From Pseudomonas aeruginosa (lineage in GTDB: Bacteria; Pseudomonadota; Gammaproteobacteria; Pseudomonadales; Pseudomonadaceae), in the NCBI RefSeq assembly GCF_001457615.1, contig NZ_LN831024.1, positions 2,460,001 through 2,492,000 of the forward strand: 32,000 bases of DNA. Reading direction: 5' to 3'. This document shows positions 1-19,576 of this stretch, in pieces (positions within the stretch are counted from its first letter, which is position 1; each line of letters opens with the position of its first letter). Position numbers and translations under genes: made by a program. The notes below the pieces were generated by a model. That model was not told the DNA's origin and did not search any database. It saw only the letters and a list, made by a program, of their open reading frames with translations.

Positions 1-3000
1 GATTTCGCCCTGGCGGCGCCGGACACCTTCACCTTCGCCCGTGGCTACCTGTCGAGCAACCCCCGTATCGGCCGGCTCGGCCGGGGCTGGTGGCTGCCGG
101 GCGAGAGCATGCACCTGGAACTGAGCGAAGACGCCTGCGTGCTGGTCGACGCCCAGGGCCGCCGGATCGGCTTTCCTGCGCTGGCTCCCGGTGCCCAGCA
201 TTATTCCGGCAGCGAGGAGCTGTGGCTGCGCCGTGGCGGTTCGAGCGGCGGCGAAGCGCAGGCCTGGCGCGGGCGCTGGGCGGCGGTGCCGGCCGAACTG
301 CAGACGCAGGAGGGCTCCGTGCTGGTGCTGTCCGGCCACAGCTACCTGCATTTCCAGCGTTGCCCCGACGGTATCTGGCGCCTGCAGGCCAGCTTCGGCC
401 GCGCCGGCTACCGCACCGAGTTCCGCTGGAGCGGACGTGGCCTGCTCACCGGCGTGCGCGACAGCGCCGGGCGCAGCTATGCGCTGGTCTACCAGCAAGC
501 CTGCGAGCCGAGCGAGGGCGACGACGGCCTGCGTCTGTTCGGCGTGATCCTGGCCAGCCACGACGGACCGCCTCCGGACTACATCGATCCGCAGAGCCCG
601 GGGCTCGACTGGCTGGTGCGCTACCAGTTCAGCGACAGCGGCGATCTGATCGCCGTGCGCGACCGTCTTGGCCAGGTGGTCCGGGTATTCGCCTGGCGCG
701 AGCACATGCTGGTCGCCCACGGCGAACCGGGCGGGCTGGAGGTTCGCTACGAGTGGGATGTCCATGCTCCGCACGGGCGGGTCGTGAAGCAGATCGAGGC
801 GGGCGGCCTGACCCGTACCTTCCGCTACCTGCGCGATGCCACCGAGGTCAGCGACAGCCTCGGCCGCGTCGAACGCTACGAGTTCGCCGGCGAGGGCGGG
901 CAGCGGCGCTGGACCGCGCTGGTCAGGGCCGACGGCAGCCGTAGCGAGTTCGACTACGACCTGTTCGGCCGCCTGGTCGCCATGCGCGATCCGCTGGGAC
1001 GGGAGACGCGGCGCCGGCGCGATGGCCAGGGGCGGATGCTCGAGGAGGAGTCGCCGGGCAAGGCGCGCTATCGCAAGCGCGTCGACGAAGAGACCGGGCT
1101 GCTGGTCGAGCTGGAGGACGCGATGCAGCGCCGCTGGACCTTCGAGCGCGACGAACGGGGCAATGCGACGACGGTGCGCGGCCCGGCCGGCAGCACCCGC
1201 TACGCCTACGAAGACCCGCGCCTGCCCGACCGGCCGACGCGAATCGTCGACCCGCGCGGCGGCGAGCGGCGCCTGGAGTGGAACCGCTTCGGCCTGTTGG
1301 CCGCGTTGACCGATTGTTCCGGCCAGGTCTGGCGTTACGACTACGACAACGAAGGACGTTTGGTCGCCAGCAGCGACCCGCTGGGACAACTGACCCGGCG
1401 CCGCTACGACCCGCTGGGGCAACTGATCGGCCTGGAATTGGCCGACGGCAGCGCCCTGAGCTATGAATACGACGCCCTTGGGCGGCAGACCCGTATCGCC
1501 GATGCCGAGGGGCACGCCACGCTGTTTTCCTGGGGGCACGGCGATCTGCTGGTGCGGGTTTCCGACGCCGGCGGCGGCGAATTGTCCTACCTGCACGACG
1601 AAGCCGGCAGGCTGGTCGCCCTGACCAACGAGAACGGCGTCCAGGCGCAGTTCCGCTACGACCTGCTGGACCGTCTGGTGGAAGAGACCGGCTTCGACGG
1701 TCGTCGCCAACGCTATCGCTACAACGCCGCTGACGAACTGATCGCCCGCGAGGATGCCGACGGTCGCGAGACCACCTATGCCTACGACCGCGACGGCCGC
1801 CTGGCGAGCATCCGGGTTCCCGCCACCGAGCACGCACCGGCCCTGGTCGAGCGTTACCGCTGGTTGGCCGACGGCCGCCTGGCCAGCGCCGGCGGGGCGG
1901 ATTGCGAGGTGCGCTATACGTACGACGAGGTCGGTAACCTGCGCCTGGAAAGCCAGGTACATGCCGACGGTTGGGTCTACAGCGTCGAGCACAGCCACGA
2001 CGCGCTAGGCGTGCGCCAGACCAGCCGCTATGGCGACGCGCCGCCGGTCGCCTGGCTGACCTATGGCCCGGGTCATCTGCACGGCGCGCTGGTCGGTGCG
2101 GTCGAGCTGGCCTTCGAGCGCGATGCCCTGCACCGTGAGGTGCGTCGCGACGCCCGCCGCGACGGGCAGGATGACGCGTTGTTCACCCAGGAGCGCCAGC
2201 ACGCGCCGCTGGGACGCCTGCAGCGCAGCCGCCTGCGTCTGGCCGGCGGTTTCGACTGGCAGCGCGGCTATCGCTACGACGGACTTGGACAACTGGTCGG
2301 CATCGACGACAACCAGTATCCGTCGGTGCGCTACGAATACGACCTCGGCGGTCGCCTGCTGGCCAGCCGGCGCGCTGGCGCGGCGGCCAGCACCTACCGC
2401 TACGACGCCGCCGGCAACCGCCTGGAGGGCGTCGGCGAGTACGCGCGCGAGGACGCTCGCCAGGCATTCGCCGAGAACGAACTGTACCGCTCCGGTTTCA
2501 GTCGCTCCGAGGCGCGCGCGAACCAGGCCGGCGAAGGCCCGGCGCGCTGGGCCGGCAACCGCGTGGAGAGGATCGCCGGCAACCGCTATCGCTTCGATGC
2601 GCTGGGCAACCTGGTCGAGCGTATCGGCGCCGACGGCGAGCGCCTGCGCCTGGCCTACGACGGCGCGCAGCGCCTGGTCCATCTGACGCGCGATTACGCC
2701 GACGGCACGCGGCTGGAGGCGCGCTACCGCTACGACGCGCTGTCGCGACGGATCGCCAAGGTGGTGCTGCGCGACGGTGTCGAGCAGCAGGTGCGCTTCG
2801 GCTGGGACGGCGATCGCCAATGCGCCGAAGCCTTTGCGCGGGAACTGCGCACCACCGTTCACGAACCGGGCGGTTTCGTCCCGTTGCTGCGCCTGGAGCA
2901 GGCCTGCGAGCCCGATCCCCCGGAGCTGCTGCAACTGCGCCAGGCGTTCGCCGCCGAAGGCCAGCCGCTGCCGGCGCAATGCGTGCCGGCGCTGGGCGAG

Positions 3001-3768
3001 GCGCGGATCGCTTTCTTCCACACCGATCACCTCGGTACCCCCCTGCAGCTGAGCGACGAACGTGGCCAACTGCGTTGGCAGGGCGTTCCGGACGACTGGC
3101 GGGCGGTAGCGCCGGAACGACAGCCGGGTGCGCAGCCGATCCGCTTCCAGGGGCAGTACCACGATGAGGAAAGCGGCTTCTACTACAACCGCTACCGTTA
3201 CTACCTGCCGGAAGCCGGGCGCTATGCCAGCCAGGACCCGCTCGGCCTGGGCGGTGGCCCCAACCCCTATGCCTACGCGCTGAACGCGCCCACGCTGGCC
3301 TACGATCCCACCGGCCTGATCATCCCGCTGGTGGTGATCGGCGCCTTCGCCGCCCGCGCCGCGATCGGAGCGGCGCTGGGCGCCGGCATCGAGCTGGGGA
3401 TGCAGACCGGCAAGCAGGTGCTGGGGCAGATGAAGGACAACTGGGACAGCGATCGCGACCTCACCGATATCAAGTGGAAGTGCATCGACATCAACTGGAA
3501 ACACGTCGGCGCCTCGGCGGCCATCGGCACCGTGGCGCCGGGCATGCTCAGCACCGGCAAGACCGTGGTGCAGTCCGCCAAGGCGATCAGGACCCTTTCC
3601 GGACAGGCGGCCAACACCGCCAACCGCGCGGCCAAGCTGGCCGCGCGCAAGGCCGCCCATGCCGATACCATCAAGAAGGCCGTGGCCACCCAGGCCGCCT
3701 GGCAGACGGGCAAGCAGATCGTCAAATGCCCGCTGAAGGACGAAGAAGAGGAGTGTCCGCCGCAATGA
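1..3768 (+). CDS. tse5: Rhs-family T6SS polymorphic toxin, 5'-truncated by the window edge: YD-repeat shell, DPxGL-x18-DPxGL autocleavage motif and a C-terminal glycine-zipper (pore-forming type) toxin domain
   Basis: Frame 1 is open from nt 1 (DFALAAPDTFTFARGYLSS...), so the start lies outside the window. There are many YD repeats (YDLFGRLVAMRDPLGR, YDNEGRLVASSDPLGQ, YDRDGRLASI, YDALGRQTRI). The conserved Rhs core end is FQGQYHDEESGFYYNRYRYYLPEAGRYASQDPLGL-x18-DPTGL. The last 149 aa begin IIPLVVIGAFAARAAIGAALGAGIELG (Gly/Ala zipper). Identity with Tse5/RhsP2 is from memory and synteny. Confidence 0.9.
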   Translation, partial: DFALAAPDTFTFARGYLSSNPRIGRLGRGWWLPGESMHLELSEDACVLVDAQGRRIGFPALAPGAQHYSGSEELWLRRGGSSGGEAQAWRGRWAAVPAELQTQEGSVLVLSGHSYLHFQRCPDGIWRLQASFGRAGYRTEFRWSGRGLLTGVRDSAGRSYALVYQQACEPSEGDDGLRLFGVILASHDGPPPDYIDPQSPGLDWLVRYQFSDSGDLIAVRDRLGQVVRVFAWREHMLVAHGEPGGLEVRYEWDVHAPHGRVVKQIEAGGLTRTFRYLRDATEVSDSLGRVERYEFAGEGGQRRWTALVRADGSRSEFDYDLFGRLVAMRDPLGRETRRRRDGQGRMLEEESPGKARYRKRVDEETGLLVELEDAMQRRWTFERDERGNATTVRGPAGSTRYAYEDPRLPDRPTRIVDPRGGERRLEWNRFGLLAALTDCSGQVWRYDYDNEGRLVASSDPLGQLTRRRYDPLGQLIGLELADGSALSYEYDALGRQTRIADAEGHATLFSWGHGDLLVRVSDAGGGELSYLHDEAGRLVALTNENGVQAQFRYDLLDRLVEETGFDGRRQRYRYNAADELIAREDADGRETTYAYDRDGRLASIRVPATEHAPALVERYRWLADGRLASAGGADCEVRYTYDEVGNLRLESQVHADGWVYSVEHSHDALGVRQTSRYGDAPPVAWLTYGPGHLHGALVGAVELAFERDALHREVRRDARRDGQDDALFTQERQHAPLGRLQRSRLRLAGGFDWQRGYRYDGLGQLVGIDDNQYPSVRYEYDLGGRLLASRRAGAAASTYRYDAAGNRLEGVGEYAREDARQAFAENELYRSGFSRSEARANQAGEGPARWAGNRVERIAGNRYRFDALGNLVERIGADGERLRLAYDGAQRLVHLTRDYADGTRLEARYRYDALSRRIAKVVLRDGVEQQVRFGWDGDRQCAEAFARELRTTVHEPGGFVPLLRLEQACEPDPPELLQLRQAFAAEGQPLPAQCVPALGEARIAFFHTDHLGTPLQLSDERGQLRWQGVPDDWRAVAPERQPGAQPIRFQGQYHDEESGFYYNRYRYYLPEAGRYASQDPLGLGGGPNPYAYALNAPTLAYDPTGLIIPLVVIGAFAARAAIGAALGAGIELGMQTGKQVLGQMKDNWDSDRDLTDIKWKCIDINWKHVGASAAIGTVAPGMLSTGKTVVQSAKAIRTLSGQAANTANRAAKLAARKAAHADTIKKAVATQAAWQTGKQIVKCPLKDEEEECPPQ
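3235..3318 (+). other. Rhs C-terminal aspartyl autoproteolysis motif DPLGL-(18 aa)-DPTGL, marking the shell/toxin boundary
   Basis: Read directly: gac ccg ctc ggc ctg at 3235-3249 and gat ccc acc ggc ctg at 3304-3318. Exactly 18 codons (GGGPNPYAYALNAPTLAY) lie between them. Confidence 0.85.
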
Positions 3769-8439: not shown

Positions 8440-8664
8440 GGCGGTCTCCTTGGCTGCGTTCGTCGTTCCGGCAGTCTAATGAAGCATCCGGGGATGACCA
8501 GGTAGGTTCTTTGCAGTTGATTGCTGCACCGCATGCAGTAGTGAGGCGGTGCTCCAAGGTGACCGAAAGTCGTGTTTCCGTATCGACAGGATTCGCCTAG
8601 TGTAAGGCGGCAGCCTGGACGGCCATGGTCCCTGTGGTCGCCGGGATCATTTCGGGAGAGTCCC

Positions 8665-9417
8665 ATGACGGTACCTTTCAAGGATCATTTCTCCACGGGG
8701 TCGGCGAACTACGCCGCACATCGTCCGACCTACCCGGCGCGGTTGGTCGACGAGCTGGCCGCGCTCTGCCCCGGCACCCGCCTGGCCCTGGACTGCGGCT
8801 GCGGCACCGGACAGCTCACGGTGCTGTTGGCCGAGCGTTTCGAACGGGTGGTCGGTACCGACGCCAGCGCCGCGCAGATCGACAAGGCGCAGGCTCGCGA
8901 GCGGGTCGAGTATCGCGTGGCATTGGCCGAGGACAGCGGGCTGGCGGCAGCCAGCGCCGACCTGGTGACGATCGCCCAGGCCGCCCACTGGCTGGACCTG
9001 CCGCGCTTCTACGAGGAGGTCCGGCGTGTGGCCCGCGCGGACGCCATCCTGGCTCTGGTTACCTATGGCGTATTGCATGTCGACGGACCCATGGAACCGC
9101 TGGTCCAGCACTTCTACCACCAGGTCGTCGGCCCCTACTGGCCTGCCGAGCGGTGCCACGTGGAGGAGGGCTACCGCAATCTGCCGTTCCCCTTCGAGGA
9201 GCGTCGCCTGCCGGACCTGGCCATCGAGGTGGCCTGGACCCTGGACGAACTGCTGGGCTATGTCGGTACCTGGTCGGCGGTGAAGGAAGCCGGCAAGGCC
9301 CTTGGCCAGGATCCGGGCGCCGCGTTCGTCGATGAGCTGCGCGAAGCCTGGGGCGACCCGCAGACGCGCTATCGGGTCAGTTGGCCGCTGACGGTGCGCG
9401 CCGGGGTGATCCGCTGA
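8665..9417 (+). CDS. Class I SAM-dependent methyltransferase
   Basis: ATG at 8665 with a GGGAGAG SD at 8654-8660. SAM motif I is LDCGCGTGQLT. 250 aa. Confidence 0.8.
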   Translation: MTVPFKDHFSTGSANYAAHRPTYPARLVDELAALCPGTRLALDCGCGTGQLTVLLAERFERVVGTDASAAQIDKAQARERVEYRVALAEDSGLAAASADLVTIAQAAHWLDLPRFYEEVRRVARADAILALVTYGVLHVDGPMEPLVQHFYHQVVGPYWPAERCHVEEGYRNLPFPFEERRLPDLAIEVAWTLDELLGYVGTWSAVKEAGKALGQDPGAAFVDELREAWGDPQTRYRVSWPLTVRAGVIR

Positions 9418-10005: not shown

Positions 10006-10809
10006 GTGAGTGGTTCCCTCTTGGTACCGGCCAGTCTCGCCAGTCGCATCAGGCTCCTGCTGGTCATGACCCGGCGCGAGGTCGAACTGCGTTATCGCGA
10101 CGCCATGTTGGGCCGCATCTGGATCATCGTCTCGCCGTTCCTGCTCTTGCTGATCTATACGTTTGTCTTCGGCTTCGTGCTGAAGTCGCGCTGGGGCGGA
10201 AGCCAGAGCACGCTCTCCTTCGCCTTGACCCTGTTTTCCGGACTCCTGCTGAACGGGATCCTCGCTGAAAGCCTGTCCAGGGCCCCGACTATCATCCAGG
10301 CCAACGCCAACTACGTGAAGAAGCTGGTTTTTCCCCTGGAGATACTTCCCCTCACACCGCTGCTGGCCGCTTTCTTCAACGCCATGCTCGGCTACCTGGT
10401 GCTCTGTATCTTTCTTCTCTTCAGCGGCGTCGAGCCGGGCTGGCAACTGGTTCTGCTACCGCTTGCCCTGCTCCCCTTCCTGCTCTGCGTGACGGGGCTG
10501 GCGTGGTTCCTCGCGGGGCTCGGGGTCTATGTTCGCGACATAGGGCAGTTCGTCCAGTTTCTCCTGGTGCTTCTGCTATTCATCAGCCCGGTGTTCTATC
10601 CGCTGTCTTCCTTGCCACCGGTAATGCAGCCCTACCTGTACCTCAATCCGCTGACGATCCCGGTGGAAATGGTCAGGGCGATCCTTTTCGATGCTCCCTA
10701 TCCGACCCTTGGGGTCTTCAGCGTTTATTGCGTTGCGTCTCTGCTGGTCTGTTCATCGGGCTTCCTCTGGTTCCGTCGGGTTCAGGAAGGTTTTGCAGAT
10801 GTCCTCTGA
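10006..10809 (+). CDS. ABC-2 type (Wzm/TagG/KpsM-like) transporter permease with no cognate ATPase gene nearby
   Basis: Polytopic hydrophobic protein with the ABC-2 N-terminal signature (RREVELRYRDAMLGRIWIIVSPFLLLLIY) and about six hydrophobic segments. GTG at 10006 was preferred because GGAGAG lies 6 nt upstream. The ORF track begins at TTG 9898, so the start is uncertain. Confidence 0.75.
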   Translation: MSGSLLVPASLASRIRLLLVMTRREVELRYRDAMLGRIWIIVSPFLLLLIYTFVFGFVLKSRWGGSQSTLSFALTLFSGLLLNGILAESLSRAPTIIQANANYVKKLVFPLEILPLTPLLAAFFNAMLGYLVLCIFLLFSGVEPGWQLVLLPLALLPFLLCVTGLAWFLAGLGVYVRDIGQFVQFLLVLLLFISPVFYPLSSLPPVMQPYLYLNPLTIPVEMVRAILFDAPYPTLGVFSVYCVASLLVCSSGFLWFRRVQEGFADVL

Positions 10810-12526
10810 GGCCGTTTCCCCGGGCCCGCAGATGACGGCCGAGTGGATACCGCTGGGGCAGCGTTTGCTCGAACGCGGGTTGGTGAGCGGCCAGGAACTC
10901 GAGCGGGCGCTCGACCTGCAACGCCGGCTTGGCGGCCGTCTGGGAGGCATTCTCGTGCGTTCCGGAGCCATCTCGGAAAATACCCTCATGCAGGTGCTGG
11001 CGGAGCAACTGCGGTTGCCGCTGGTGGGGGACGACCTGCGGAAGCCGAGCGAAGAGTCCATCGCCGCATTCCTGCTCAGTACCCCGATCAATACCGACTG
11101 GTTCGTCGAAGAGCAACTGGTGGTCTGGGAGGAGGGCGAGCAACTGCTGTTCGCGGCGCGTGATCCGTTATCTCCTTCGATACGCGAAACCCTGGGCTAT
11201 TTCTATCCGGAGCGCTCGATTCAAGCAGTGCTGTGCCGCTCCCAGGATCTGGACGGCTGGTTGGAGCACTCCCTGGACCTGGCCCGGCAAGGTGCGGATC
11301 GGCACGCCTACGGCAGCGAAGACATCCGCTACCTGCGGGAGTTGGCGGAGGAGGCGCCGGTAGTCGAACTCGTCAACAACGTGATGAGCCAGGCCATGGA
11401 AAAGCGCTCTTCGGATATTCACATCGAACCCCGGGAGTTCGACTTCCGTATCCGCTTCCGCGTCGACGGCGTCCTGCACGACCAACTGAGCCTTCCCCGC
11501 GAGCGATTCGCGGCGGTTGTCTCGCGGATCAAGCTGATCTCCGCCATCGACATCGCGGAGCGACGGTTGCCGCAGGATGGACGCATGAGCATCCGGGTCA
11601 GCGGTACGGAGCTCGACGTGCGGGTCTCCACCTTGCCAGGGGTGCATGGCGAATCGGTGGTCATGCGCCTGTTGCCGAAGGAGCGCGAGGGGTTGCGCCT
11701 GGACCGGCTCGGGATGCTCCCGGACCACTTGCGGAGGATGCGTGCATGGGTAGCGGAACCCCACGGCATCATCCTGGTGACCGGCCCCACCGGATCGGGC
11801 AAGTCCACCACGCTCTATGGCGCGCTGGAGGAAATCAATGATGGCGTGCGCAAGCTCATCAGCGTGGAAGATCCCGTGGAATACCAGGTGCCCAATATCA
11901 CCCAGGTCCAGGTCCATGCCGACATCGGCCTGACCTTCGCTGCCGCCTTGCGCTCGATCCTGCGGCAGGATCCCGATGTGATCATGATCGGGGAGATACG
12001 CGACCTGGAGACGGCGGAGATCGCCGTACAGTCCTCGCTCACCGGTCACCTGGTGCTTTCGACCCTGCATACCAACGATGCGGTGAGCGCCTTCACGCGC
12101 TTGATCGACATGGGCGTGGAACCCTTCCTGGTGGCTTCGCCGGTGCGCGGTGTCCAGGCCCAGCGACTGGTGCGCAGGTTGTGCGCCCACTGCGCGGAAC
12201 CTTGCGAGCCAACCCTTGCTGCGGCCGATCTGGCAGCGACCGAGGCGGCCACCGCGCGGCTGTTCCCGGGGCAGGCAGCGCAATGGCGCGTGGCGCGAGG
12301 CTGCGGCCGCTGCGAAGGTACCGGCTACAGCGGCCGTGTGGGCATCTACGAACTCGTCGATCTGTCTTCCGAGATGCGCGACCTGATCGTGCAGAGAGCT
12401 TCCCTCGAACAGATGCATCGGCTTGCCGCCAGCCAGGGACAGCGCAATCTGCGTGAAGATGGCTTGATCAAGGCCTGGTTGGGTATGACCAGTCTTGACG
12501 AGGTGCATCGCGTGACCAGCGGCTAA
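10799..12526 (+). CDS. GspE/MshE-family secretion ATPase with an N-terminal MshEN (c-di-GMP-binding type) domain
   Basis: Walker A GPTGSGKST, Walker B/Asp box DPDVIMIGEIRD, His box TGHLVLSTLHTN, and tetracysteine CAHCAEP...CGRCEGTGYSGR. ATG at 10799 with a cAGGAAGG SD, overlapping the permease stop (10807-10809). Confidence 0.9.
   Translation: MSSEAVSPGPQMTAEWIPLGQRLLERGLVSGQELERALDLQRRLGGRLGGILVRSGAISENTLMQVLAEQLRLPLVGDDLRKPSEESIAAFLLSTPINTDWFVEEQLVVWEEGEQLLFAARDPLSPSIRETLGYFYPERSIQAVLCRSQDLDGWLEHSLDLARQGADRHAYGSEDIRYLRELAEEAPVVELVNNVMSQAMEKRSSDIHIEPREFDFRIRFRVDGVLHDQLSLPRERFAAVVSRIKLISAIDIAERRLPQDGRMSIRVSGTELDVRVSTLPGVHGESVVMRLLPKEREGLRLDRLGMLPDHLRRMRAWVAEPHGIILVTGPTGSGKSTTLYGALEEINDGVRKLISVEDPVEYQVPNITQVQVHADIGLTFAAALRSILRQDPDVIMIGEIRDLETAEIAVQSSLTGHLVLSTLHTNDAVSAFTRLIDMGVEPFLVASPVRGVQAQRLVRRLCAHCAEPCEPTLAAADLAATEAATARLFPGQAAQWRVARGCGRCEGTGYSGRVGIYELVDLSSEMRDLIVQRASLEQMHRLAASQGQRNLREDGLIKAWLGMTSLDEVHRVTSG
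10850..11008 (+). other. Tandem 24-residue MshEN motifs separated by a 5-residue spacer
   Basis: PLGQRLLERGLVSGQELERALDLQ - RRLGG - RLGGILVRSGAISENTLMQVLAEQ. Both fit RLGxx(L/V/I)(L/V/I)xxG(L/V/I)(L/V/I)xxxxLxxxLxxQ, except P for R at position 1 of repeat 1 and A for L/V/I at position 11 of repeat 2. Confidence 0.75.
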
Positions 12527-12530
12527 GCCC

Positions 12531-13718
12531 ATGAATTTCATCTACCAAGCCGTCGATCGCAAGGGCAGGCGCGTTCGTGGCGAACTCTGCCTCCCAACGC
12601 GCCAGGATGCGCTGCGGCAGTTGCAGCGCCAGGGGCTCACCCCGCTCAGCCTGGAGGTGAAACGCCGCAACCTGGGCTCGCGACGTCGGCTCAAGGCCGA
12701 GGAATTGAACATGGCCATCCATGAGCTGGCCACCATGCTCGCGGCGGGAGTGAGCATGGCCGACGCGGTGGAGGCCCAGGAGCGAGGCGCGCGCCACCCG
12801 AAGTTGATTTCCGCCCTGCAGGAGATGGCCAATGGTCTGCGCCAGGGGCAATCCTTTCCCGTGGTGCTGGAGAGCGCCGGCCTCGACCTGCCGCGCTATG
12901 TATATCAACTGGTGGCGGCCGGCGAGATGACCGGAAACCTCGCAGGAGCCCTGAGGGACTGTGCCACGCAGATGGAATACGAACGGCGAACCCGCGCCGA
13001 GTTGCAAGGGGCGCTGATCTACCCTGCGATTCTGGTGCTCAGCGGGGTGCTCGCCGTGGCGACCCTGTTCGTCTTCGTCGTTCCGAAATTCGCCAATCTC
13101 CTGAACGAGACCGCCCAGCTCCCGTGGCTTGCCTGGGCAGTGCTGAGCATCGGGGTATGGAGCAACGAGAGTTCCGGCTTGCTGGCGTTCGCCGTCCTGC
13201 TGCTTGCTGGCGGCATTGCCGTGGCGCTGCGCAATCCGGCGCTCCGCGCCCATGCGCTCGACCAGTTGGTGCGCCTGCCCGTAGTCGGGGAATGGTTGAT
13301 GCAGGCGGAAATAGCGCAATGGTCGAAGGTGCTTGGAACCCTGCTGGGAAATCGTGTGCCGCTGGTGGAGGCCCTGGCGCTTTCCGCCGCTGGCGTCCGC
13401 ATTGCCCGGCAGCGCCGGACCCTGGAGCGAGTCACCCAGGATGTGCGGGCCGGCATCGCCTTGTCGGCAGCGTTGGAGGAGCGCCAGGCGGTCACGTCCA
13501 TCGGTTCGAGCCTGGTGCGGGTTGGAGAGGCCTCCGGGCAGCTCGCGGAGATGCTGCAGAGCCTGGCGACGCTCTATGGAGAGGCCGGGCAGGCGCGAAT
13601 GAAAAAGGCCCTGGTACTGATCGAGCCTTTGGCGATCCTGCTGATCGGCTCTGTGTTCGGCCTGATCATTACCGGCGTGGTACTGGCGATTACCAGCGCC
13701 AACGACATGGTGCTTTGA
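12531..13718 (+). CDS. GspF-family inner-membrane platform protein
   Basis: 395 aa, starting 4 nt after the ATPase stop. Typical duplicated GspF architecture (cytoplasmic helical domain followed by hydrophobic segments, twice), with the N-terminus MNFIYQAVDRKGRRVRGEL. Confidence 0.9.
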   Translation: MNFIYQAVDRKGRRVRGELCLPTRQDALRQLQRQGLTPLSLEVKRRNLGSRRRLKAEELNMAIHELATMLAAGVSMADAVEAQERGARHPKLISALQEMANGLRQGQSFPVVLESAGLDLPRYVYQLVAAGEMTGNLAGALRDCATQMEYERRTRAELQGALIYPAILVLSGVLAVATLFVFVVPKFANLLNETAQLPWLAWAVLSIGVWSNESSGLLAFAVLLLAGGIAVALRNPALRAHALDQLVRLPVVGEWLMQAEIAQWSKVLGTLLGNRVPLVEALALSAAGVRIARQRRTLERVTQDVRAGIALSAALEERQAVTSIGSSLVRVGEASGQLAEMLQSLATLYGEAGQARMKKALVLIEPLAILLIGSVFGLIITGVVLAITSANDMVL

Positions 13719-13771
13719 ATGCCGGGTATCGATGCCGCGGCTGGTTGGATGAGACGTGAAGTGGAAACCGT

Positions 13772-14206
13772 ATGAACAGAGCTGCACAACAGGGCTTCAC
13801 CCTGCTCGAGATGATTGTGGTGTTGGTGATTATCGGCATGCTGATGGGGCTCGTCGGGCCGCGACTGTTCAATCAGGCCGACAAGGCGAAGGCGCAGACG
13901 GCGGATACCCAGGTGAAGATGCTCAAGGGCGCGTTGCTCACCATGCGCCTGGACATCGGCCGGCTGCCGACCGAAGAAGAAGGCCTGGCGCTACTCAACA
14001 CGCCGCCTTCCGATGAACGTCTCGGGGCCTTCTGGCACGGGCCCTACCTCGAGGGCGGCGTACCGCTGGACCCCTGGAACCGGCCTTACCTGTACAGCGA
14101 CAGGCCGAGTGCCGAACAACCCTTCACTCTCTACAGTCAGGGCGCGGATGGGCAGCCCGGTGGGAAAGGCCTGGATGCCGATGTCGGTTACGCGCCCAAA
14201 CGTTGA
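13772..14206 (+). CDS. GspG-type major pseudopilin
   Basis: Prepilin leader MNRAAQQG/FTLLEMIVVLVIIGMLMGL with E at +5. GspG body motifs are present (LPTEEEGLALL, GPYLEGGVPLDPWNRPYLY, LYSQGADGQPGG). Confidence 0.9.
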   Translation: MNRAAQQGFTLLEMIVVLVIIGMLMGLVGPRLFNQADKAKAQTADTQVKMLKGALLTMRLDIGRLPTEEEGLALLNTPPSDERLGAFWHGPYLEGGVPLDPWNRPYLYSDRPSAEQPFTLYSQGADGQPGGKGLDADVGYAPKR

Positions 14207-14585
14207 CCAGGCCGCGTTCACCTTGCTCGAACTGCTGGTGGTGCTGGTGATCGTCGGGGCCATTGCTGCGGTGGCGTTGCCCGGCCTGGTGAGGATGCAG
14301 GAGACCTGGGCGCGCAGGACCGCGCTGGACGATCTGTTCAATCAATTGCAGACCTTGGGCTATCGCGTGCGCAGCGATGGGCGGGAGCTGCTCATTGGTG
14401 AGAGCGGGGCGGTTCCCGAGCAGTTGCTGCGACTGCCCGATGGCTGGACGGTTACTGCTCGGCCGCCGATACGTTACATGGCAAACGGAGTTTGCCTGGG
14501 CGGAAAGTTGCAGGTCCATCATGGGCGCGCGACACATACGCTGCTGCTTCAGCCCCCCCTCTGCGCGCCCGGGACGATCCGCTGA
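14175..14585 (+). CDS. Minor pseudopilin, GspH-like
   Basis: ATG at 14175 (GGGAAAGG SD 5 nt upstream) overlaps the end of gspG. Leader MPMSVTRPNVDQAA/FTLLELLVVLVIVGAIAA. The H-like assignment rests on size (136 aa) and position. Confidence 0.65.
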   Translation: MPMSVTRPNVDQAAFTLLELLVVLVIVGAIAAVALPGLVRMQETWARRTALDDLFNQLQTLGYRVRSDGRELLIGESGAVPEQLLRLPDGWTVTARPPIRYMANGVCLGGKLQVHHGRATHTLLLQPPLCAPGTIR

Positions 14586-15010
14586 TGCCGGCGCGGCAGG
14601 AAGGCTTCACGCTCCTGGAGGCGGTGGTTGCGCTGACGCTCCTGGCAGTGGTCGGCGGTGCGCTTTTCGCCTGGCTCAACAGTGCCTTTCGGAGCATGCA
14701 GCGGGTCGAGGCGGCCGAGCTGCGCATCGAGACGGCTTGGGTGGCGATGGCCTATCTGGAGCGCATGAACCCTGCGCTCGAACCCGCAGGCAGGGTCCGG
14801 CTGGGGCATTACCGGCTGGAGTGGCGAAGTTCGCCGCTGTCCGCGTCGAAAGCGGCGGTGGGCCGCCATAGCGGCAGTCCGGGCATCTACGACGTGACCT
14901 TGTTCAGGGTCGTCGCCAGCATCCGGGCCGGCGATGGAACGCCGCAGACGCTGCAACTGGAGCTTCCCGGATACGTGGTCATCCCAGCGCGACTGGGTGA
15001 TGGACCATGA
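14585..15010 (+). CDS. Minor pseudopilin, GspI-like
   Basis: TGATG junction at 14583-14587. Leader MPARQEG/FTLLEAVVALTLLAVVGG. 141 aa. Confidence 0.65.
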   Translation: MPARQEGFTLLEAVVALTLLAVVGGALFAWLNSAFRSMQRVEAAELRIETAWVAMAYLERMNPALEPAGRVRLGHYRLEWRSSPLSASKAAVGRHSGSPGIYDVTLFRVVASIRAGDGTPQTLQLELPGYVVIPARLGDGP

Positions 15011-15597
15011 TCCGCTCGCGACGAAAACAGGGTGCATTCACCCTGCTCGAGATGATCGTGGTGCTGCTGGTCGTTTCCTTCATCGGCACGTTGCTCATGC
15101 AAGGGTTGAGCTATGCCAGCAAGGCCAACCAGTCCTTGCACCAGAGCCTGGGGCGCGGACAGGTCCGGGCGCTGACCTTCGATTGGTTCCGTGATGCGGT
15201 GGAGAACCTGGTCGCTCCCGAGGCTGGCGAGGTCCGCTGGCGTCTGCGAGGGGACGAACTCAGTTTCGAGGCCATGTCTGCCGCGGCCCTGGATCGCCGT
15301 GCGGGCATCCCGACGCCCTTGGCCTTCCGGCTTGAGCGGCGGGCAGGAGAGGACCGGACCGAGTTGATCTATGTGCGAAGGCTGGAGGACAGTCGCTGGC
15401 CCCTCCTGCATCTGCGCGGCGAAGCTCGCTTCCGCTATCTGGACGGTCACGGCCAGTGGCACCGGGACTGGCCGCCGAGCGCGCAACTGGCCGATACCCT
15501 TCCCGAGGCGATGGCACTGGCGGCTCCCGAGGAGCGTCTGTTTGTCCTTGTCGCGGTCGCACTGCCCAGAGCGAGGCCCGCCGAACATGATTTCTGA
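15007..15597 (+). CDS. Minor pseudopilin, GspJ-like
   Basis: ATGA junction at 15007-15010. Leader MIRSRRKQGA/FTLLEMIVVLLVVSFIG. 196 aa. Confidence 0.6.
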   Translation: MIRSRRKQGAFTLLEMIVVLLVVSFIGTLLMQGLSYASKANQSLHQSLGRGQVRALTFDWFRDAVENLVAPEAGEVRWRLRGDELSFEAMSAAALDRRAGIPTPLAFRLERRAGEDRTELIYVRRLEDSRWPLLHLRGEARFRYLDGHGQWHRDWPPSAQLADTLPEAMALAAPEERLFVLVAVALPRARPAEHDF

Positions 15598-16666
15598 TGG
15601 CGCACGCCGACATGCGGCGTCTGCCCGCTCGTCTGGCTTCGTTCTGGTCGGAGTGGTCTGGTTCCTGGCCATCATGACCCTGCTGGCCAGTGCCGCTGTA
15701 CTCTGGGTCGGGCGCTCGCTGGATGCCACGGAAAACCGGCGCAAGGCGCTGCTTCGTGAGCTGGAGGAGCATGCCTTGCTGGCGCGGGTCCAATGGCTGG
15801 TGGCTACCCAGCGCTATACCGTCGCGGGCCTGAGCGTACCGGGAAATGCTGGCGCCGCGCCGAGCAAGGTGGACATGGACACTTCGATCCTGCCCATTGG
15901 CGGGGAGCTGCCTCTGGATGGCCGGGAGTTCTGCATGGCCAATGGCTGGTGCGTTGCGCTGCTCGATCGCTCTGCGCGCCTCAGTCTTTCCGGCATCGAT
16001 CCGCGGGTACTGTCCAGGCTGCTGGCGGGGTTGGGGGTTCCCGCCGAGCAGGTGCAGGTCATGGTCGCCCAATGGTTCAGCTATCTCTATCCCGGCGCCG
16101 CTCCACGACTGGGTAGTGCCGCGCAAGCCAGCGACAGGTCCTCTCCGGGCCAGGCCCGGCGCCGTCCGTTGCGCTCGGTGATGGAAGTCTTCCGGCTGGA
16201 GGCCTGGCGCCCCTGGGAAGCGCATTTGCTCGACGCCGGTTGGCGCGATCTGGTCGCGGCGGACGAGGCGGCGCTGAACATCAACACCGCGGATGCCCGA
16301 ATCCTGTCTCTTGCCTGGGGACTACCGGAGGACGCTGTCGGCCGACTGCTGCAAGCCCGCTGGCAGCGTCCGTTCACCCGGATGTCGGACCTGCATGACG
16401 TCCTCGGGGGTCATGCGAGGCTGGTTCCCGAGGATGGATGGGCGCGCCTGGCCAGTCCGGTCCTGTCGATTCGGCTCTACCCGCCAGGAGCCGAGCAGGG
16501 GACGGAATACGAGGTCCGCTTCAACTCAGAGCACCGCCTGCTGCCACCCTGGCAGCTTCTCTCGAAGAGGTCCGTGAAGATAAATGATCGCTACTCGAAT
16601 CCTCCGTTGCATCCCGATATCGCCCCCGGGGTTCTTGCCGCCCCGCTTGTGGCAAGGCCGTGGTAA
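15587..16666 (+). CDS. Minor pseudopilin, GspK-like (tip complex cap)
   Basis: ATG at 15587 overlaps the gspJ-like end by 11 nt. The hydrophobic N-terminus SSGFVLVGVVWFLAIMTLLASAAV lacks E+5, as in GspK. GspK-like motifs are LDRSARLSLSG and ALNINTADARILSLAWGLPEDAVGRLLQAR (helix-hairpin-helix region). 359 aa. Confidence 0.65.
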   Translation: MISDGARRHAASARSSGFVLVGVVWFLAIMTLLASAAVLWVGRSLDATENRRKALLRELEEHALLARVQWLVATQRYTVAGLSVPGNAGAAPSKVDMDTSILPIGGELPLDGREFCMANGWCVALLDRSARLSLSGIDPRVLSRLLAGLGVPAEQVQVMVAQWFSYLYPGAAPRLGSAAQASDRSSPGQARRRPLRSVMEVFRLEAWRPWEAHLLDAGWRDLVAADEAALNINTADARILSLAWGLPEDAVGRLLQARWQRPFTRMSDLHDVLGGHARLVPEDGWARLASPVLSIRLYPPGAEQGTEYEVRFNSEHRLLPPWQLLSKRSVKINDRYSNPPLHPDIAPGVLAAPLVARPW

Positions 16667-17696
16667 GGATGGCCGGGCGCAGCTTGAGTGGGTACGTAGA
16701 GGTACAGGGTTGGCGCGGCGCGCCCCAGCGCAGTGGATCGTGGATCGGGCGTGGTGTGTCTATCGCTGTCTCGATCTCAATCATGTGCCGCGCTCTGACC
16801 GGTATCAGGCACTGGCGTTGAAGCTTGCCGCCCTGGCGCCTTTTCGCCGCGCGGGCCATTACGTAGCCTGGCGGGGTGGCCATGCTCTGGTCTGGTTCTG
16901 GGATGAGGAGGTCCGGGAGGCCGTTGCCGAAGACTGCGTCGACCAACCTCGGCGTTATCGCTGTATCCCCGAATCCCTGCTGCAGGCTCCCCCTCGGTCG
17001 ATCGCGGAAGGCGAGACGGTTCGGCTGCTTCGGGTTCGCTCCGGGCTGGATCTCCAGGTCTGGAGAGATGACTGCCTTGTCCTGAGCCATTTCTTTCCCA
17101 GCCCACCCCAGCCAGAACAATGGGTTCGGTTGCTCCGGGGGCTGGCGGGAATACGCATCCCGGAGAGCCTGGTTGCCGAGCCTGGAGAGTCACTGGGCCG
17201 TCCCTGGGCCGTTCCGGCGGCGGAAGCAACGCTGCTGCGATGGGAGCGTTGGTTGCCGCATGGGCTCATAGCCACCCTGTTGCTGGGATGCGGATTCAAT
17301 CTGGGGGAAGGTTTGTCCTGGTGGTGGGCCGAGCGTGCGCTGCGAACGCAGTACGACCAGCTGAGCGGCCAGGTCTCGCCGATCCTCAGCGCACGCAACC
17401 AGGCCTTGCAGACCAATCGGATGGCCACGGAGCTGGGGCGCGCTTTGCAGCATCGCTCGCAGGTGGCGCTGCTGGGACAGGTAGCGGAACTGTTGCCGAA
17501 GGACAGTCGGTTGCTCGCCTGGCGCTATCGAGGCTCCGAGCTGGAGTTGCGGATTGGCACCGACAGTGTCGACCCGCGTCTCTATGTGAGGCGTTTCATG
17601 GAGTCGGGGAGTTTCGAAGATGTCAGGGTGGAACCTTCGCAGAGCGAGGGGCTATCGCTGAGCCTGGTCCTGCGTACGCCGGGGGAGGGTGCCTGA
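16584..17696 (+). CDS. GspL-like bitopic assembly-platform protein (start uncertain)
   Basis: Cytoplasmic region of about 200 aa, one TM helix (LPHGLIATLLLGCGFNLGEGLSWWW), then a coiled region plus a C-terminal periplasmic domain, placed between the K-like and M-like genes. I saw no strong family motif, so the call is by architecture and synteny. The only ATG (16584) overlaps the upstream gene by 83 nt; in-frame TTGs at 16647 and 16710 are alternatives. Confidence 0.45.
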   Translation: MIATRILRCIPISPPGFLPPRLWQGRGKDGRAQLEWVRRGTGLARRAPAQWIVDRAWCVYRCLDLNHVPRSDRYQALALKLAALAPFRRAGHYVAWRGGHALVWFWDEEVREAVAEDCVDQPRRYRCIPESLLQAPPRSIAEGETVRLLRVRSGLDLQVWRDDCLVLSHFFPSPPQPEQWVRLLRGLAGIRIPESLVAEPGESLGRPWAVPAAEATLLRWERWLPHGLIATLLLGCGFNLGEGLSWWWAERALRTQYDQLSGQVSPILSARNQALQTNRMATELGRALQHRSQVALLGQVAELLPKDSRLLAWRYRGSELELRIGTDSVDPRLYVRRFMESGSFEDVRVEPSQSEGLSLSLVLRTPGEGA

Positions 17697-18280
17697 TGTC
17701 GGACTTCCAGCGATCACTGCAGTTCCAGGGGCGGAACCTGCAACGACAATGGCAGGAAAAACCACTCTTGCGCATGGCCATCTGGAGCCTGTGCCTGCTG
17801 CTGGTTGTGCATCTGGTCATGCTCAGCATGGATTGGAGGGAGGAACGAGGGGAGGAATATCGTCGTCTGGCCGGGGAATGGCTCAAGCTCCAGGACGTTT
17901 CCCGGCAGATCGCCTGGCCGGAGCGGGCGATGCAGGCGGAGCAGGTCCTGAACCTTCAGCGAGAGCGCTTCTGGCAGGCGCCGAATGCGTCGCAGGCGAG
18001 GGCCGATGTGCAGGCCTGGCTGACCGAGCGGGTTCGCCTGGCGGGCGTCCCTGACGCGGAAGTGAGCGTACTGCTTCCTCGCGGCTTCGAGAAGCAAGGG
18101 ACGATCGCGCGTATCGAGGCCCAGGTTCGCGGGCAGTTGCAGCCAGCCTCGTTCAGTCGGTTGTTGCAGGATATAGAAGCGGAGCAGCGGCAAGTATCGG
18201 TGGAGTTTCTGGAACTGAACAATATGTTGTCGCCCATGCTCAATCTACAATTGTCGTTCCTGTTCGTAGCGGCCTATTGA
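17696..18280 (+). CDS. GspM-like bitopic protein
   Basis: TGATG junction at 17694-17698 with a GGGGGAGGG SD. 194 aa with a short cytoplasmic N-terminus, one TM helix (MAIWSLCLLLVVHLVMLSM) and a periplasmic domain. The call is by architecture and position after the L-like gene. Confidence 0.5.
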   Translation: MSDFQRSLQFQGRNLQRQWQEKPLLRMAIWSLCLLLVVHLVMLSMDWREERGEEYRRLAGEWLKLQDVSRQIAWPERAMQAEQVLNLQRERFWQAPNASQARADVQAWLTERVRLAGVPDAEVSVLLPRGFEKQGTIARIEAQVRGQLQPASFSRLLQDIEAEQRQVSVEFLELNNMLSPMLNLQLSFLFVAAY

Positions 18281-18558
18281 AGCGGATGCGGATCGGGCAG
18301 CACCCGTTTGCCGGAAGAGTTCGGCGGAGGGCGGTGCCCTTCGATGGAGCGAGTTGCCGCCAGGCGGCCGGGAAACCGAATCCGCTCGGGACGCCTGCGA
18401 TTCGGCTCTCCGGCCCGCCATTGTCGCATTCGCGCAGCGAAGAACGGCCAGTCTGGTCCGCCCTGTAAACAAGTGCAAAATTTTACTTCATGGTCGGCTT
18501 GGCACTCCGAGCCGGCTCGTCCATGCTGGAGCACAACTTTCCCATGGATACCATTGCC

Positions 18559-18840
18559 ATGAAGTTCCTGCTGCCCCTGCTGCTGTTATTCCCGCTTTCC
18601 GCTCTCGCCGACGACAAGGACTACGACCAATGCATACTCGACTACCAACGCACGGCGAAGAGCGGGGTGGCGGTTCACTTCATCACCCAGGCCTGCGACA
18701 AGTTGTATAACGACGGCTCCTTCCTGCTGTCGCGGGAAAAGGCTTATTACGAGTGTCTGCTGGAGAACCTGCCGGGGGTGGAGAACAACCTGGCGGCGCA
18801 GAAGATCAGGAGCGCTTGCGAATCGAAGTCGCAGAATTGA
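18559..18840 (+). CDS. Small exported protein of unknown function (four Cys after the signal peptide)
   Basis: MKFLLPLLLLFPLSALA/DDKDYDQC... has a Sec-type signal peptide and no lipobox Cys. The four Cys are in DQC, QAC, YEC and SAC contexts. An alternative ATG lies at 18544. Lower GC than the flanks. Confidence 0.55.
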   Translation: MKFLLPLLLLFPLSALADDKDYDQCILDYQRTAKSGVAVHFITQACDKLYNDGSFLLSREKAYYECLLENLPGVENNLAAQKIRSACESKSQN

Positions 18841-18915: not shown

Positions 18916-19269
18916 TTAGCGTTGCAGCCAGGATTCGACGGTTTCGGAACCGTACTGTTCTTTCCAGGCTTTCAGAACCTTGTGGTTGCCGCCCTTGGTT
19001 TCGACGACTTCACCGTTGTTCGGGTTCTTGTAGACCTTCAGGGCGCGGGCACGGCGCTGCGGAGCGGCGCTGACGGTGACCGGAGCCTTGGGGTCGAGGA
19101 TGGCGATGATGTTGTGCAGGGTCATGCCGTACTTGTCCATCAACGCCTGCAACTTGTCCTTGAATTCCAGTTCCTGCTTCAGGCTGCTGTCGCTTTTCAG
19201 CTTTTCCAGCAGGGCCAGTTGCTCCTGAAGTTTGCGCTCTGCCTCGCGGAACTCGGCAAGTTTGGACAT
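18916..19269 (-). CDS. mvaU: MvaT/MvaU-family H-NS-like nucleoid-associated xenogeneic silencer
   Basis: MSKLAEFREAERKLQEQLALLEKLKS... has an N-terminal coiled coil, and the C-terminal DNA-binding region contains KVYKNPNNGEVVETKGGNHKVLKAWK. ATG at 19269 with a GGGAG SD 8 nt upstream; the ORF-track GTG at 19278 was rejected. 117 aa. Confidence 0.9.
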   Translation of the reverse strand: MSKLAEFREAERKLQEQLALLEKLKSDSSLKQELEFKDKLQALMDKYGMTLHNIIAILDPKAPVTVSAAPQRRARALKVYKNPNNGEVVETKGGNHKVLKAWKEQYGSETVESWLQR

Positions 19270-19576
19270 TCGTTTCACTCCCGTTCTAAAAATATGGTGC
19301 TGGGTTTTGGTGCATTTATAGTGGATTTACGGACTTTCCGTGTCCGCGGCAAAGGATAAGTCTTTATCTACTGGAAGAACAATATAGTTGCACGGTTTTA
19401 TTGACTAACGGACTGTAGGGACAGCTTGCCGGATGTTTCCCGGAAGAATATGAAACCTTTATGTCCGTGGGGATAATGCTTCGTACAACCCATGGGAGAG
19501 AGACGGCAGAACGGGCCCGTTGTGTGGAAGCCCGTTTTAGAGCAGATGGCGAAGCGCCAGGGGAGAGTCGGGCGAA
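19270..19576 (-). promoter_or_regulatory. AT-rich mvaU upstream region (promoter and probable MvaT/MvaU autoregulatory target)
   Basis: Hand count of three 60-nt lines: 19261-19320 has 23/60 G+C, 19321-19380 has 28/60, and 19381-19440 has 27/60. A typical flank line (2041-2100) has 45/60. The region contains the small palindrome GATAA-N4-TTATC (19355-19368). Confidence 0.5.

Follow-up and report, generated by a model that had tools for sequence, protein, structure and literature searches.

How a type II secretion system (T2SS) could work from a gene cluster that encodes no secretin is the question raised by a block of ten genes in Pseudomonas aeruginosa. The block lies at positions 10006-18280, on the + strand and in a G+C-rich region, of a 32,000-nucleotide stretch of contig NZ_LN831024.1 (hereafter the window, meaning the whole stretch analysed). 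It is the Hpl cluster, PA2678-PA2669, which has been named and is uncharacterised. Its co-directional genes, with overlapping or abutting stop and start codons, encode an ABC-2 (Wzm-like) permease, GspE-, GspF- and GspG-type proteins, four minor pseudopilins, and one L-like and one M-like protein. A first, sequence-only reading of the window described the cluster as listed among T2SS-like sets as incomplete, and the literature indeed has a "putative incomplete Hpl T2SS, PA2669-PA2677", which P. paraeruginosa does not carry (PMC12369383). Reviews and annotations have so far carried Hpl as an incomplete third T2SS without a function, a puzzling orphan status for a system whose ATPase is among the few secretion ATPases proven to bind cyclic di-guanosine monophosphate (c-di-GMP). 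We put at roughly 0.6 the probability that Hpl supplies the inner-membrane and pseudopilus components, one half of a complete T2SS-plus-glycan island that is contiguous in relatives and split in P. aeruginosa. Its "secretin-less" status would then reflect this split genome arrangement, not an incomplete machine.

Contiguous islands in relatives and the PA1381-PA1391 locus

The L-like protein served as the family-specific marker for orthologous loci, and neighbourhoods were read in Metapseudomonas resinovorans, M. furukawaii, P. jinjuensis, P. schmalbachii, P. delhiensis, P. citronellolis, Pseudomonas sp. OTU5201, Pseudomonas sp. ATCC 13867 and several metagenomic contigs. A word-based search found the protein in the P. 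aeruginosa group of pseudomonads only, a locus search with a close L-like alignment reached the same group only, and a 61-sequence L-like profile gained almost no distant relatives in the word-based search. An exhaustive profile search of the family returned at least 1000 representative clusters at E ≤ 1e-3, and 245 at E ≤ 1e-30. Directly after the M gene, a GspC-like gene and a secretin are found in 13 of the 14 non-aeruginosa loci (L002-L008, L010, L011, L015, L016, L025 and L026); only the block of Pseudomonas sp. ATCC 13867 (L001) is without them and ends after M. The ABC-2 permease is the first gene in 13 of the 13 orthologous loci in which the upstream end is covered, and it overlaps the ATPase gene by about 11 nucleotides (nt) where the genes were called. 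These counts answer a question put by the sequence-only reading, namely whether orthologous blocks carry a secretin or always carry the ABC-2 gene. The GspC-like proteins of the relatives have about 150-200 amino acids (aa), one transmembrane segment and a homology region (HR)/PilP-like domain, with weak matches to T2SSC and PilP, and the complete secretin genes encode proteins of 724-772 aa.

The island runs on past the secretin in six loci, those of P. jinjuensis, P. schmalbachii, P. delhiensis and P. citronellolis (L005-L008) together with L011 and L025, with a PA1383-like gene, galE (for which L011 gave no match), a family 4 glycosyltransferase (GT4), Wzt and a sulfotransferase. The Wzt protein of these contiguous islands combines ABC_tran with Wzt_C, as does PA1386 of P. 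aeruginosa. L025 is the closest contiguous relative, with everything from E through a second GT4 gene on one contig, and its proteins are 62-86% identical to those of P. aeruginosa (E 83%, L 68%, C 62%, D 77%, PA1383 86% and Wzt 75%).

When the Hpl-linked secretin of M. resinovorans was used as a query, it retrieved two P. aeruginosa secretin clusters at 71% identity, with 1249 and 15 member sequences. The protein, PA1382 (758 aa, with Secretin_N and Secretin domains), is also 77% identical to the secretin of L025. Its neighbourhood reads aceK, several unrelated genes, an AraC-type regulator, a 163-aa GspC-like protein, the secretin, a 601-aa protein, galE, GT4, Wzt, a sulfotransferase, a family 2 glycosyltransferase (GT2) and GT4. 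The 601-aa gene contains the sites of the primers published for PA1383, at exactly +172 and +278, which sets the numbering as PA1380 for AraC, PA1381 for the GspC-like gene, PA1382 for the secretin, PA1383, PA1384 for galE and PA1386 for Wzt. PA1381-PA1391, the tail to the Hpl head, is collinear gene for gene with the post-M genes of the contiguous islands, and a head (L013) and a tail (L021) both come from assembly GCA_022553055.1. GspC and GspD are thus absent from the Hpl locus and present elsewhere in the genome as PA1381 and PA1382. We consider it highly probable, from homology and gene order, that head and tail are two halves of one ancestral island.

The sequence-only reading had concluded that the block has no dedicated outer-membrane conduit, and this is not supported: PA1381/PA1382 is a dedicated pair whose secretin is 71-77% identical to Hpl-linked secretins, and the same genes follow it as in the contiguous islands. 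Its expectation that the missing parts act in trans was correct insofar as they come from elsewhere in the genome, and borrowing from Xcp, Hxc or an orphan secretin finds no support. PA1381 is a short GspC with a transmembrane segment and HR regions and no PDZ domain. Its T2SSC match is weak (E 0.0046), the L011 orthologue scores 24.1 bits (cut-off 27), and a profile of the GspC-like alignment gave no meaningful match among sequences of the PDB.

Homology to the contiguous islands ends at the M stop codon, which places the breakpoint region at 18281-18489. At the M-C junction of L025, the blastn match to the window ends with M and resumes at the GspC-like start in L017 and L021 (the PA1381 locus), so that the break falls within the M-C spacer of about 160 nt. 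As the sequence-only reading had stated, secretin, GspC and prepilin peptidase are missing from the 32 kb. All 74 open reading frames (ORFs) of 150 aa or more, from either strand of the window, were scanned against Pfam, and neither a secretin nor a prepilin peptidase is among the best 25 of the 49 matched families, listed down to E 2e-13. The orthologous secretins and GspC-like proteins gave a best E of 1.3 against the window by tblastn. A secretin pseudogene downstream of M was considered and rejected, as the same tblastn search left no secretin remnant in the window. No Peptidase_A24 was called at any orthologous locus.

The two halves are also complementary in their transporter genes. No ABC ATPase partner for PA2678 is present in the window, and no permease was called within 10 kb downstream of the tail secretin. 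A permease without an ATPase in the head and a Wzt without a permease in the tail, joined in one island in the relatives, suggest that PA2678 and PA1386 form one transporter. A Wza/KpsD- or KpsE-like gene was seen in none of the loci.

The gene after the secretin encodes the candidate cargo. PA1383 (601 aa) has a Sec signal peptide, a mature mass of about 61 kDa and an isoelectric point of 5.1, with Gly, Ala, Asn and Thr abundant and Cys and Met scarce in the mature protein. Its metagenomic homologues sit directly after such a secretin in five cases out of five, and a tblastn search of plasmids gave no match. Transcription and translation of PA1383 have been reported, as has its repression by MvaT and MvaU (PMC8850804). 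The PA1382-PA1383 spacer (L021 12278-12813) has a G+C content of 44.6% in a genome of about 67%, and is likely, from its composition and position, to be an MvaT/MvaU binding region and the promoter of the candidate cargo gene. Loss of PA1382 has been reported to change phage sensitivity. We found no paper that names both PA1382 and PA2677; coverage of the literature was incomplete, and an earlier publication is possible.

Several loci depart from the common plan. Upstream, L001 and the metagenomic relative L011 are bordered by the same genes, tyrA/aroA and cmk. Past M they differ: the L001 block stops there, whereas C, D, the PA1383-like gene, GT4 and Wzt are retained in L011, a contrast that points to a second, independent truncation or split. 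In the distant relatives L030 and L010, with L-like proteins 29-30% identical, the order L, M, GspC-like and D is kept. L030 lies amid rml and GT2 sugar genes, its ATPase keeps the MshEN motif and it has no ABC-2 gene, and the L010 locus is without E, F and G. The contexts of the distant secretins L028, L029 and L030 are only loosely informative. L009 (NZ_GG666179.1, 239 bp), from an assembly labelled Anaerococcus lactolyticus ATCC 51172, is 100% identical to the P. aeruginosa L-like gene and almost certainly represents contamination of a public assembly.

Selection on the two halves and competing explanations

Selection was measured as the ratio of nonsynonymous to synonymous divergence (dN/dS) between two P. 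aeruginosa lineages that both carry the split arrangement and are 95.9% identical over 21 kb. All ten ORFs of the head are intact in both lineages (dS 0.06-0.23), without stop codons, and dN/dS is 0.058 for the ABC-2 permease, 0.063 for E, 0.10 for F, 0.034 for G and 0.21-0.27 for H to M, resembling the values obtained against the secretin-linked cluster of M. resinovorans. The tail is likewise free of stop codons, with dN/dS of 0.03-0.20 (D 0.064, PA1383 0.032, Wzt 0.058), a range that the short C gene exceeds at 0.40; within the island, conservation is highest in PA1383. Purifying selection acts on both halves, and both are intact. As grounds for its own refutation, the sequence-only reading had named orthologues that consistently carry a secretin or GspC lost here together with inactivating mutations. 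The orthologues do carry the C/D pair, and the second part fails, with no inactivating mutations and dN/dS of 0.03-0.27.

These values bear most directly on the explanation that survives best beside ours, that the head is an evolutionary remnant of a broken island, non-functional, silent or decaying, and kept by chance or linkage. The block is without C, D, a cargo and a Wzt partner, P. paraeruginosa is entirely without Hpl (PMC12369383), and the locus of Pseudomonas sp. ATCC 13867 likewise ends after M. The prepilin site of the H-like pseudopilin has Ala at -1, G+C content is below that of the flanks, and the block adjoins mvaU. Low dN/dS across intact ORFs nevertheless speaks against decay, constraint on the tail genes is just as strong, the ATPase has kept its ability to bind c-di-GMP (PMC4624772) and transcripts are detected (PMC8619066). 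We therefore regard a remnant as unlikely.

Base composition and divergence set both halves apart from their surroundings. G+C content is 64.3% in the head against about 69% around it, and 56.4% in the tail against 67.9%. Between the two lineages both halves also diverge more than the flanking housekeeping genes (dS 0.06-0.43 versus 0.01-0.10), with protein identities of about 91% for H to M and of 93-94% for galE, GT4, Wzt and the sulfotransferase. This raised divergence resembles that of surface-antigen loci or the trace of past recombination.

On the proposal that a split island still operates, head and tail probably still work together, judging from their joint conservation and constraint. 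The five pseudopilins would be matured by the housekeeping prepilin peptidase; a shared enzyme, PilD/XcpA, is encoded elsewhere in the P. aeruginosa genome and is assumed to serve Hpl. HplE-F-L-M together with PA1381 would form the platform beneath the PA1382 secretin, c-di-GMP on the MshEN domain of the ATPase would license the machine, and the pseudopilus would drive periplasmic PA1383 outward through PA1382. The tail enzymes would make an undecaprenyl-linked and possibly sulfated polysaccharide, exported in parallel by PA2678 (Wzm) with PA1386 (Wzt); by analogy with the A-layer of Aeromonas, it would anchor the secreted protein at the cell surface or be displayed beside it. The system is probably silent under standard conditions, because both halves are low in G+C and at least PA1383 is repressed by MvaT/MvaU. 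By the same analogy, the odds that PA1383 is the cargo and resembles a surface-layer (S-layer) protein fall a little short of even. The full picture of a cryptic split surface coat, in which Hpl and PA1381/PA1382 export S-layer-like PA1383, PA2678/PA1386 export a possibly sulfated O-polysaccharide, and the whole is silenced by MvaT/MvaU and gated by c-di-GMP, is less likely than not and is offered tentatively.

A number of observations weigh against the split-island reading or its functional extension. M. resinovorans, M. furukawaii and OTU5201 carry C and D and have no PA1383/Wzt block within 6-8 kb, so the T2SS module can exist apart from the glycan/cargo module. The minor pseudopilins, L and M score under the curated family cut-offs. 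The -1 residue of the H-like pseudopilin is Ala in both P. aeruginosa lineages and Gly in all ten of the ten non-aeruginosa orthologues compared, a substitution that, from the sequence of the site, could reduce its processing. PA1383 matches no Pfam or NCBIfam family (including Slr4) and no PDB sequence or solved structure. The tail of the window's own strain is deduced from PAO1 gene numbering in the literature, the functional link proposed between the two loci is drawn from sequence, and the parallel with the Aeromonas S-layer draws on gene order and sizes from papers. No S-layer is known from P. aeruginosa.

It is improbable, in our estimate, that the machine exports a glycan rather than a protein, with the pseudopilus and secretin standing in for the missing outer-membrane polysaccharide export (OPX) and polysaccharide co-polymerase (PCP) proteins of an ABC-transporter-dependent polysaccharide pathway. 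Glycan export of a pseudopilus type has been proposed for the cyanobacterial Hps pseudopilins. The T2SS genes here lie between wzm and wzt, amid glycosyltransferases, galE and a sulfotransferase, the loci show no Wza/KpsD- or KpsE-like gene, and the distant relative L030 is also surrounded by rml and GT2 genes. In Aeromonas clusters of the same architecture, however, the glycan is the lipopolysaccharide (LPS) O-antigen, vapA mutants lose the S-layer and keep this O-antigen, and export of VapA is seen as the dedicated task of the Sps T2SS (PMC4483657). Export of a glycan alone would also sit uneasily with the strong conservation of PA1383 (dN/dS 0.03) and with its invariable place, in five of five metagenomic homologues, directly after the secretin.

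Least probable is that the block, with no C or D in the window, borrows XcpQ, HxcQ or XqhA or builds a non-secreting periplasmic or surface fibre: orphan GspC/GspD pairs of P. aeruginosa (XphA/XqhA) can indeed substitute in Xcp, and the ATPase is akin to a pilus ATPase (below), but the major subunit scores as a GspG equivalog rather than a pilin, and a cognate C/D pair exists that is orthologous to and collinear with the Hpl-linked pair of the relatives, so that a foreign secretin or a non-secretory fibre is no longer needed to explain the anatomy.

The split-island reading changes how the locus can be approached. Intact, selected parts at PA1381-PA1391 (a GspC-like protein, a secretin, a putative cargo, Wzt and glycan enzymes) turn an orphan into a testable complete system, with PA1383 as the candidate substrate and with c-di-GMP, MvaT/MvaU and the adjacent AraC-type PA1380 as candidate regulators. 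A role is thereby offered for the "orphan" secretin PA1382. A further possibility is that a major pathogen is able to turn on a surface coat of protein and glycan resembling the A-layer, a major virulence factor in Aeromonas. The general lesson is to compare an "incomplete" secretion cluster with its contiguous orthologues before proposing an unusual mechanism for it.

Genes of the Hpl block and its flanks

The sequence-only reading had described a tightly packed + strand block of nine genes. The packing and the listed overlaps are real (10799/10809, 14175/14206, 14585, 15007/15010, 15587/15597 and 17696), but the genes number ten, the ABC-2 permease lying within the interval. It was right that the block encodes an inner-membrane platform and a pseudopilus without C, D or a peptidase of its own, and that the flanks are unrelated.

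All ten genes are on the + strand. The first, PA2678 (10006-10809), encodes the ABC-2 (Wzm-like) transport permease (Pfam ABC2_membrane E 2.8e-28), has weak NCBIfam matches to Wzm/KpsM and overlaps the ATPase start by 11 nt. The GspE-type ATPase HplR, PA2677 (10799-12526), matches Pfam T2SSE at E 3.4e-135 and scores 571.9 bits against TIGR02533, below the equivalog cut-off of 630.25; by these scores it is a member of the GspE family and not a canonical GspE equivalog. A CxxC...CxxC motif lies at its C terminus and an MshEN domain at its N terminus. The polytopic platform protein HplS, PA2676 (12531-13718), is of the GspF type, with two T2SSF repeats (E 3.6e-47) and a TIGR02120 match at E 3.6e-68 (230.6 bits, under the equivalog cut-off of 424).

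The N terminus of HplR connects the block to c-di-GMP. It scores 28.8 bits against Pfam MshEN PF05157 (cut-off 23.1) and 61.8 bits against the NCBIfam c-di-GMP motif NF053729 (cut-off 38), and the tandem MshEN motif is conserved in all orthologues. The window ATPase is identical to a protein labelled P. aeruginosa PAO1 in public sources and, judged on species, length (575 aa) and operon context, is equivalent to PA14_29490. The latter (575 aa) binds c-di-GMP through its N-terminal domain, with a dissociation constant of 480 nM for the fragment (PMC4624772; also PMC5013675), whereas XcpR, HxcR and PilB showed no binding (PMC4624772, PMC5013675). PA14_29490 is the reciprocal best hit of MshE, the ATPase of the mannose-sensitive haemagglutinin (MSHA) pilus (PMC4624772). 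A transcriptome table includes transcripts of hplR, hplS and PA2678 (PMC8619066); other hpl gene names, when searched for in the literature, led to unrelated papers only.

Five pseudopilin genes follow. The GspG major pseudopilin (13772-14206; T2SSG E 1.8e-32, plus N_methyl) reaches 192 bits against TIGR01710 (cut-off 88.85) and has the prepilin site QQG|FTLLE. The H-like minor pseudopilin (14175-14585; N_methyl 28.3 bits, cut-off 21.2) has the site DQAA|FTLLE and matches the GspH model at E 1.1e-7, under its cut-off. The I-like protein (14585-15010; N_methyl 30 bits; site QEG|FTLLE) has XpsI NF047828 as its best NCBIfam match (E 3.1e-8, under the cut-off), and the J-like protein (15007-15597; N_methyl 23.8 bits; site QGA|FTLLE) scores 22.9 bits against T2SSJ (cut-off 28). 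The -1 residue of the J-like site is Ala or Gly, varying among orthologues that include secretin-linked ones. The K-like protein (15587-16666) gives T2SSK E 0.012 (16.4 bits, cut-off 24.2) and E 7.2e-8 against NF037980 GspK, under the cut-off, and is named GspK in public sources. Its leader SSG|FVLVG is without Glu at position 5, as in GspK, and its orthologue in L010 carries T2SSK_1st. Gene order and sizes of H, I, J and K fit four minor pseudopilins.

The block closes with two bitopic proteins. The L-like protein (16710-17696) has no Pfam or NCBIfam match, and its start is ambiguous between TTG 16710 (public annotation, 328 aa) and an alternative ATG at 16584, which overlaps K by 83 nt, giving a length of 328-370 aa. 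A single transmembrane segment separates its cytoplasmic domain from a periplasmic alpha/beta domain, and 4 of 61 members of the family match GspL_C. The AlphaFold2 model is of low confidence, with a mean predicted local distance difference test (pLDDT) of 58 and a predicted template modelling score (pTM) of 0.33, and only the C-terminal domain (pLDDT about 80) is usable. This domain best matches the periplasmic domains of PulL, EpsL and XcpY, at target template modelling scores of 0.5-0.66 and non-significant E values above 0.001; a profile of the L-like alignment gave no meaningful match among PDB sequences. The M-like protein, last in the block (17696-18280), scores 21.2 bits against T2SSM_b (cut-off 21.7) and E 1.6e-8 against NF040576 GspM/XpsM, under the cut-off, and shares 47-66% identity with the product of the gene just before the GspC-like one in the contiguous islands.

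Neither the block (megablast against a plasmid collection) nor the L-like protein (tblastn against plasmids) matched a plasmid. Promoter and terminator scans stayed at chance level, Rfam gave no match in the window, and no ops/JUMPstart octamer was found near the block. On the left the block is flanked by a methyltransferase (8572-9417), and on the right by the small gene PA2668 (18490-18840) and then mvaU (18916-19278, - strand). The product of PA2668 is small, carries a signal peptide and belongs to the VF_A0006 four-cysteine family (NF041602 E 8.7e-31), and the gene together with mvaU occupies a stretch of 57.8% G+C just past the breakpoint. PA2668 and the upstream methyltransferase were rejected as parts of the system, both being absent from every orthologous locus. 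At the left end of the window, a 1219-aa Rhs-repeat protein (109-3768; RHS_repeat E 1.8e-75, plus an RHS core) is probably a toxin associated with a type VI secretion system and is unrelated to Hpl.

Comparison with known secretion and surface-layer systems

Hpl shares with Xcp and Hxc the E, F and G proteins, a secretin of the GspD family and, presumably, reliance on the common prepilin peptidase PilD/XcpA, and its four putative minor pseudopilins and L-like and M-like proteins correspond to theirs in order. It differs in that all its proteins except G fall below the NCBI equivalog cut-offs, its GspC is short and has no PDZ domain, the block starts with an ABC-2 permease, and the C/D pair lies at a separate locus. 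The Hpl ATPase, moreover, binds c-di-GMP, whereas XcpR and HxcR did not (PMC4624772). Some features recall Xps of Xanthomonas: XpsI is the best NCBIfam match of the I-like protein and GspM/XpsM that of the M-like protein, whose Pfam match is of subtype b, all below cut-off. XpsE conserves the c-di-GMP-contact residues Arg9 and Gln32 of MshE and has been proposed to bind c-di-GMP (PMC4624772). Xps, in contrast, is a general secretion system, contiguous with its own secretin.

The N-terminal tandem MshEN motif, with binding shown for PA14_29490, is the likeness to MshE of V. cholerae. MshE drives a type IV pilus, whereas the Hpl ATPase is of the GspE branch, and its gene is linked to those of GspG and GspK pseudopilins. 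Dedicated gsp clusters are physically linked to the S-layer proteins NpdA and Slr4 in Comamonadaceae and marine Gammaproteobacteria (PMC10765051). A similar arrangement may exist in L028 (10001-15578), where a secretin 36% identical to the Hpl type lies 2 kb from a 457-aa protein with a weak match to Pfam Slr4, another possible link between a secretin and an S-layer protein; PA1383 differs in that it does not match the Slr4 model.

The closest parallel in gene order is the Sps system of Aeromonas. In A. hydrophila AH-1 and A. salmonicida A450 the S-layer genes lie inside an ABC-2-dependent O-antigen cluster in the order wzm, SpsE-F-G-H-I-J-K-L-M, Orf2, SpsD, vapA, wzt and a sulfotransferase-domain gene, and wzt mutants lose the O-antigen (PMC4413209, PMC4483657). 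This order is the same as that of the contiguous Hpl islands (L005-L008, L011 and L025) and of the P. aeruginosa head and tail. Most sizes are also close: the Aeromonas proteins measure 551-552 aa for SpsE, 395-399 for SpsF, 143-144 for SpsG, 198 for SpsM, 166 for Orf2, 743 for SpsD and 438 for the wzt product (PMC4413209, PMC4483657), against 575, 395, 144, 194, 163 and 758 aa for E, F, G, M, the GspC-like protein and D of Hpl, with J, K and L varying more. Sps and Hpl are each a second, dedicated T2SS beside a general one. P. aeruginosa differs from Aeromonas in that its island is split into two loci and in the demonstrated binding of c-di-GMP by the MshEN domain of the ATPase. Hpl is best filed as a split, c-di-GMP-sensing, dedicated T2SS linked to a surface protein, as in Aeromonas.

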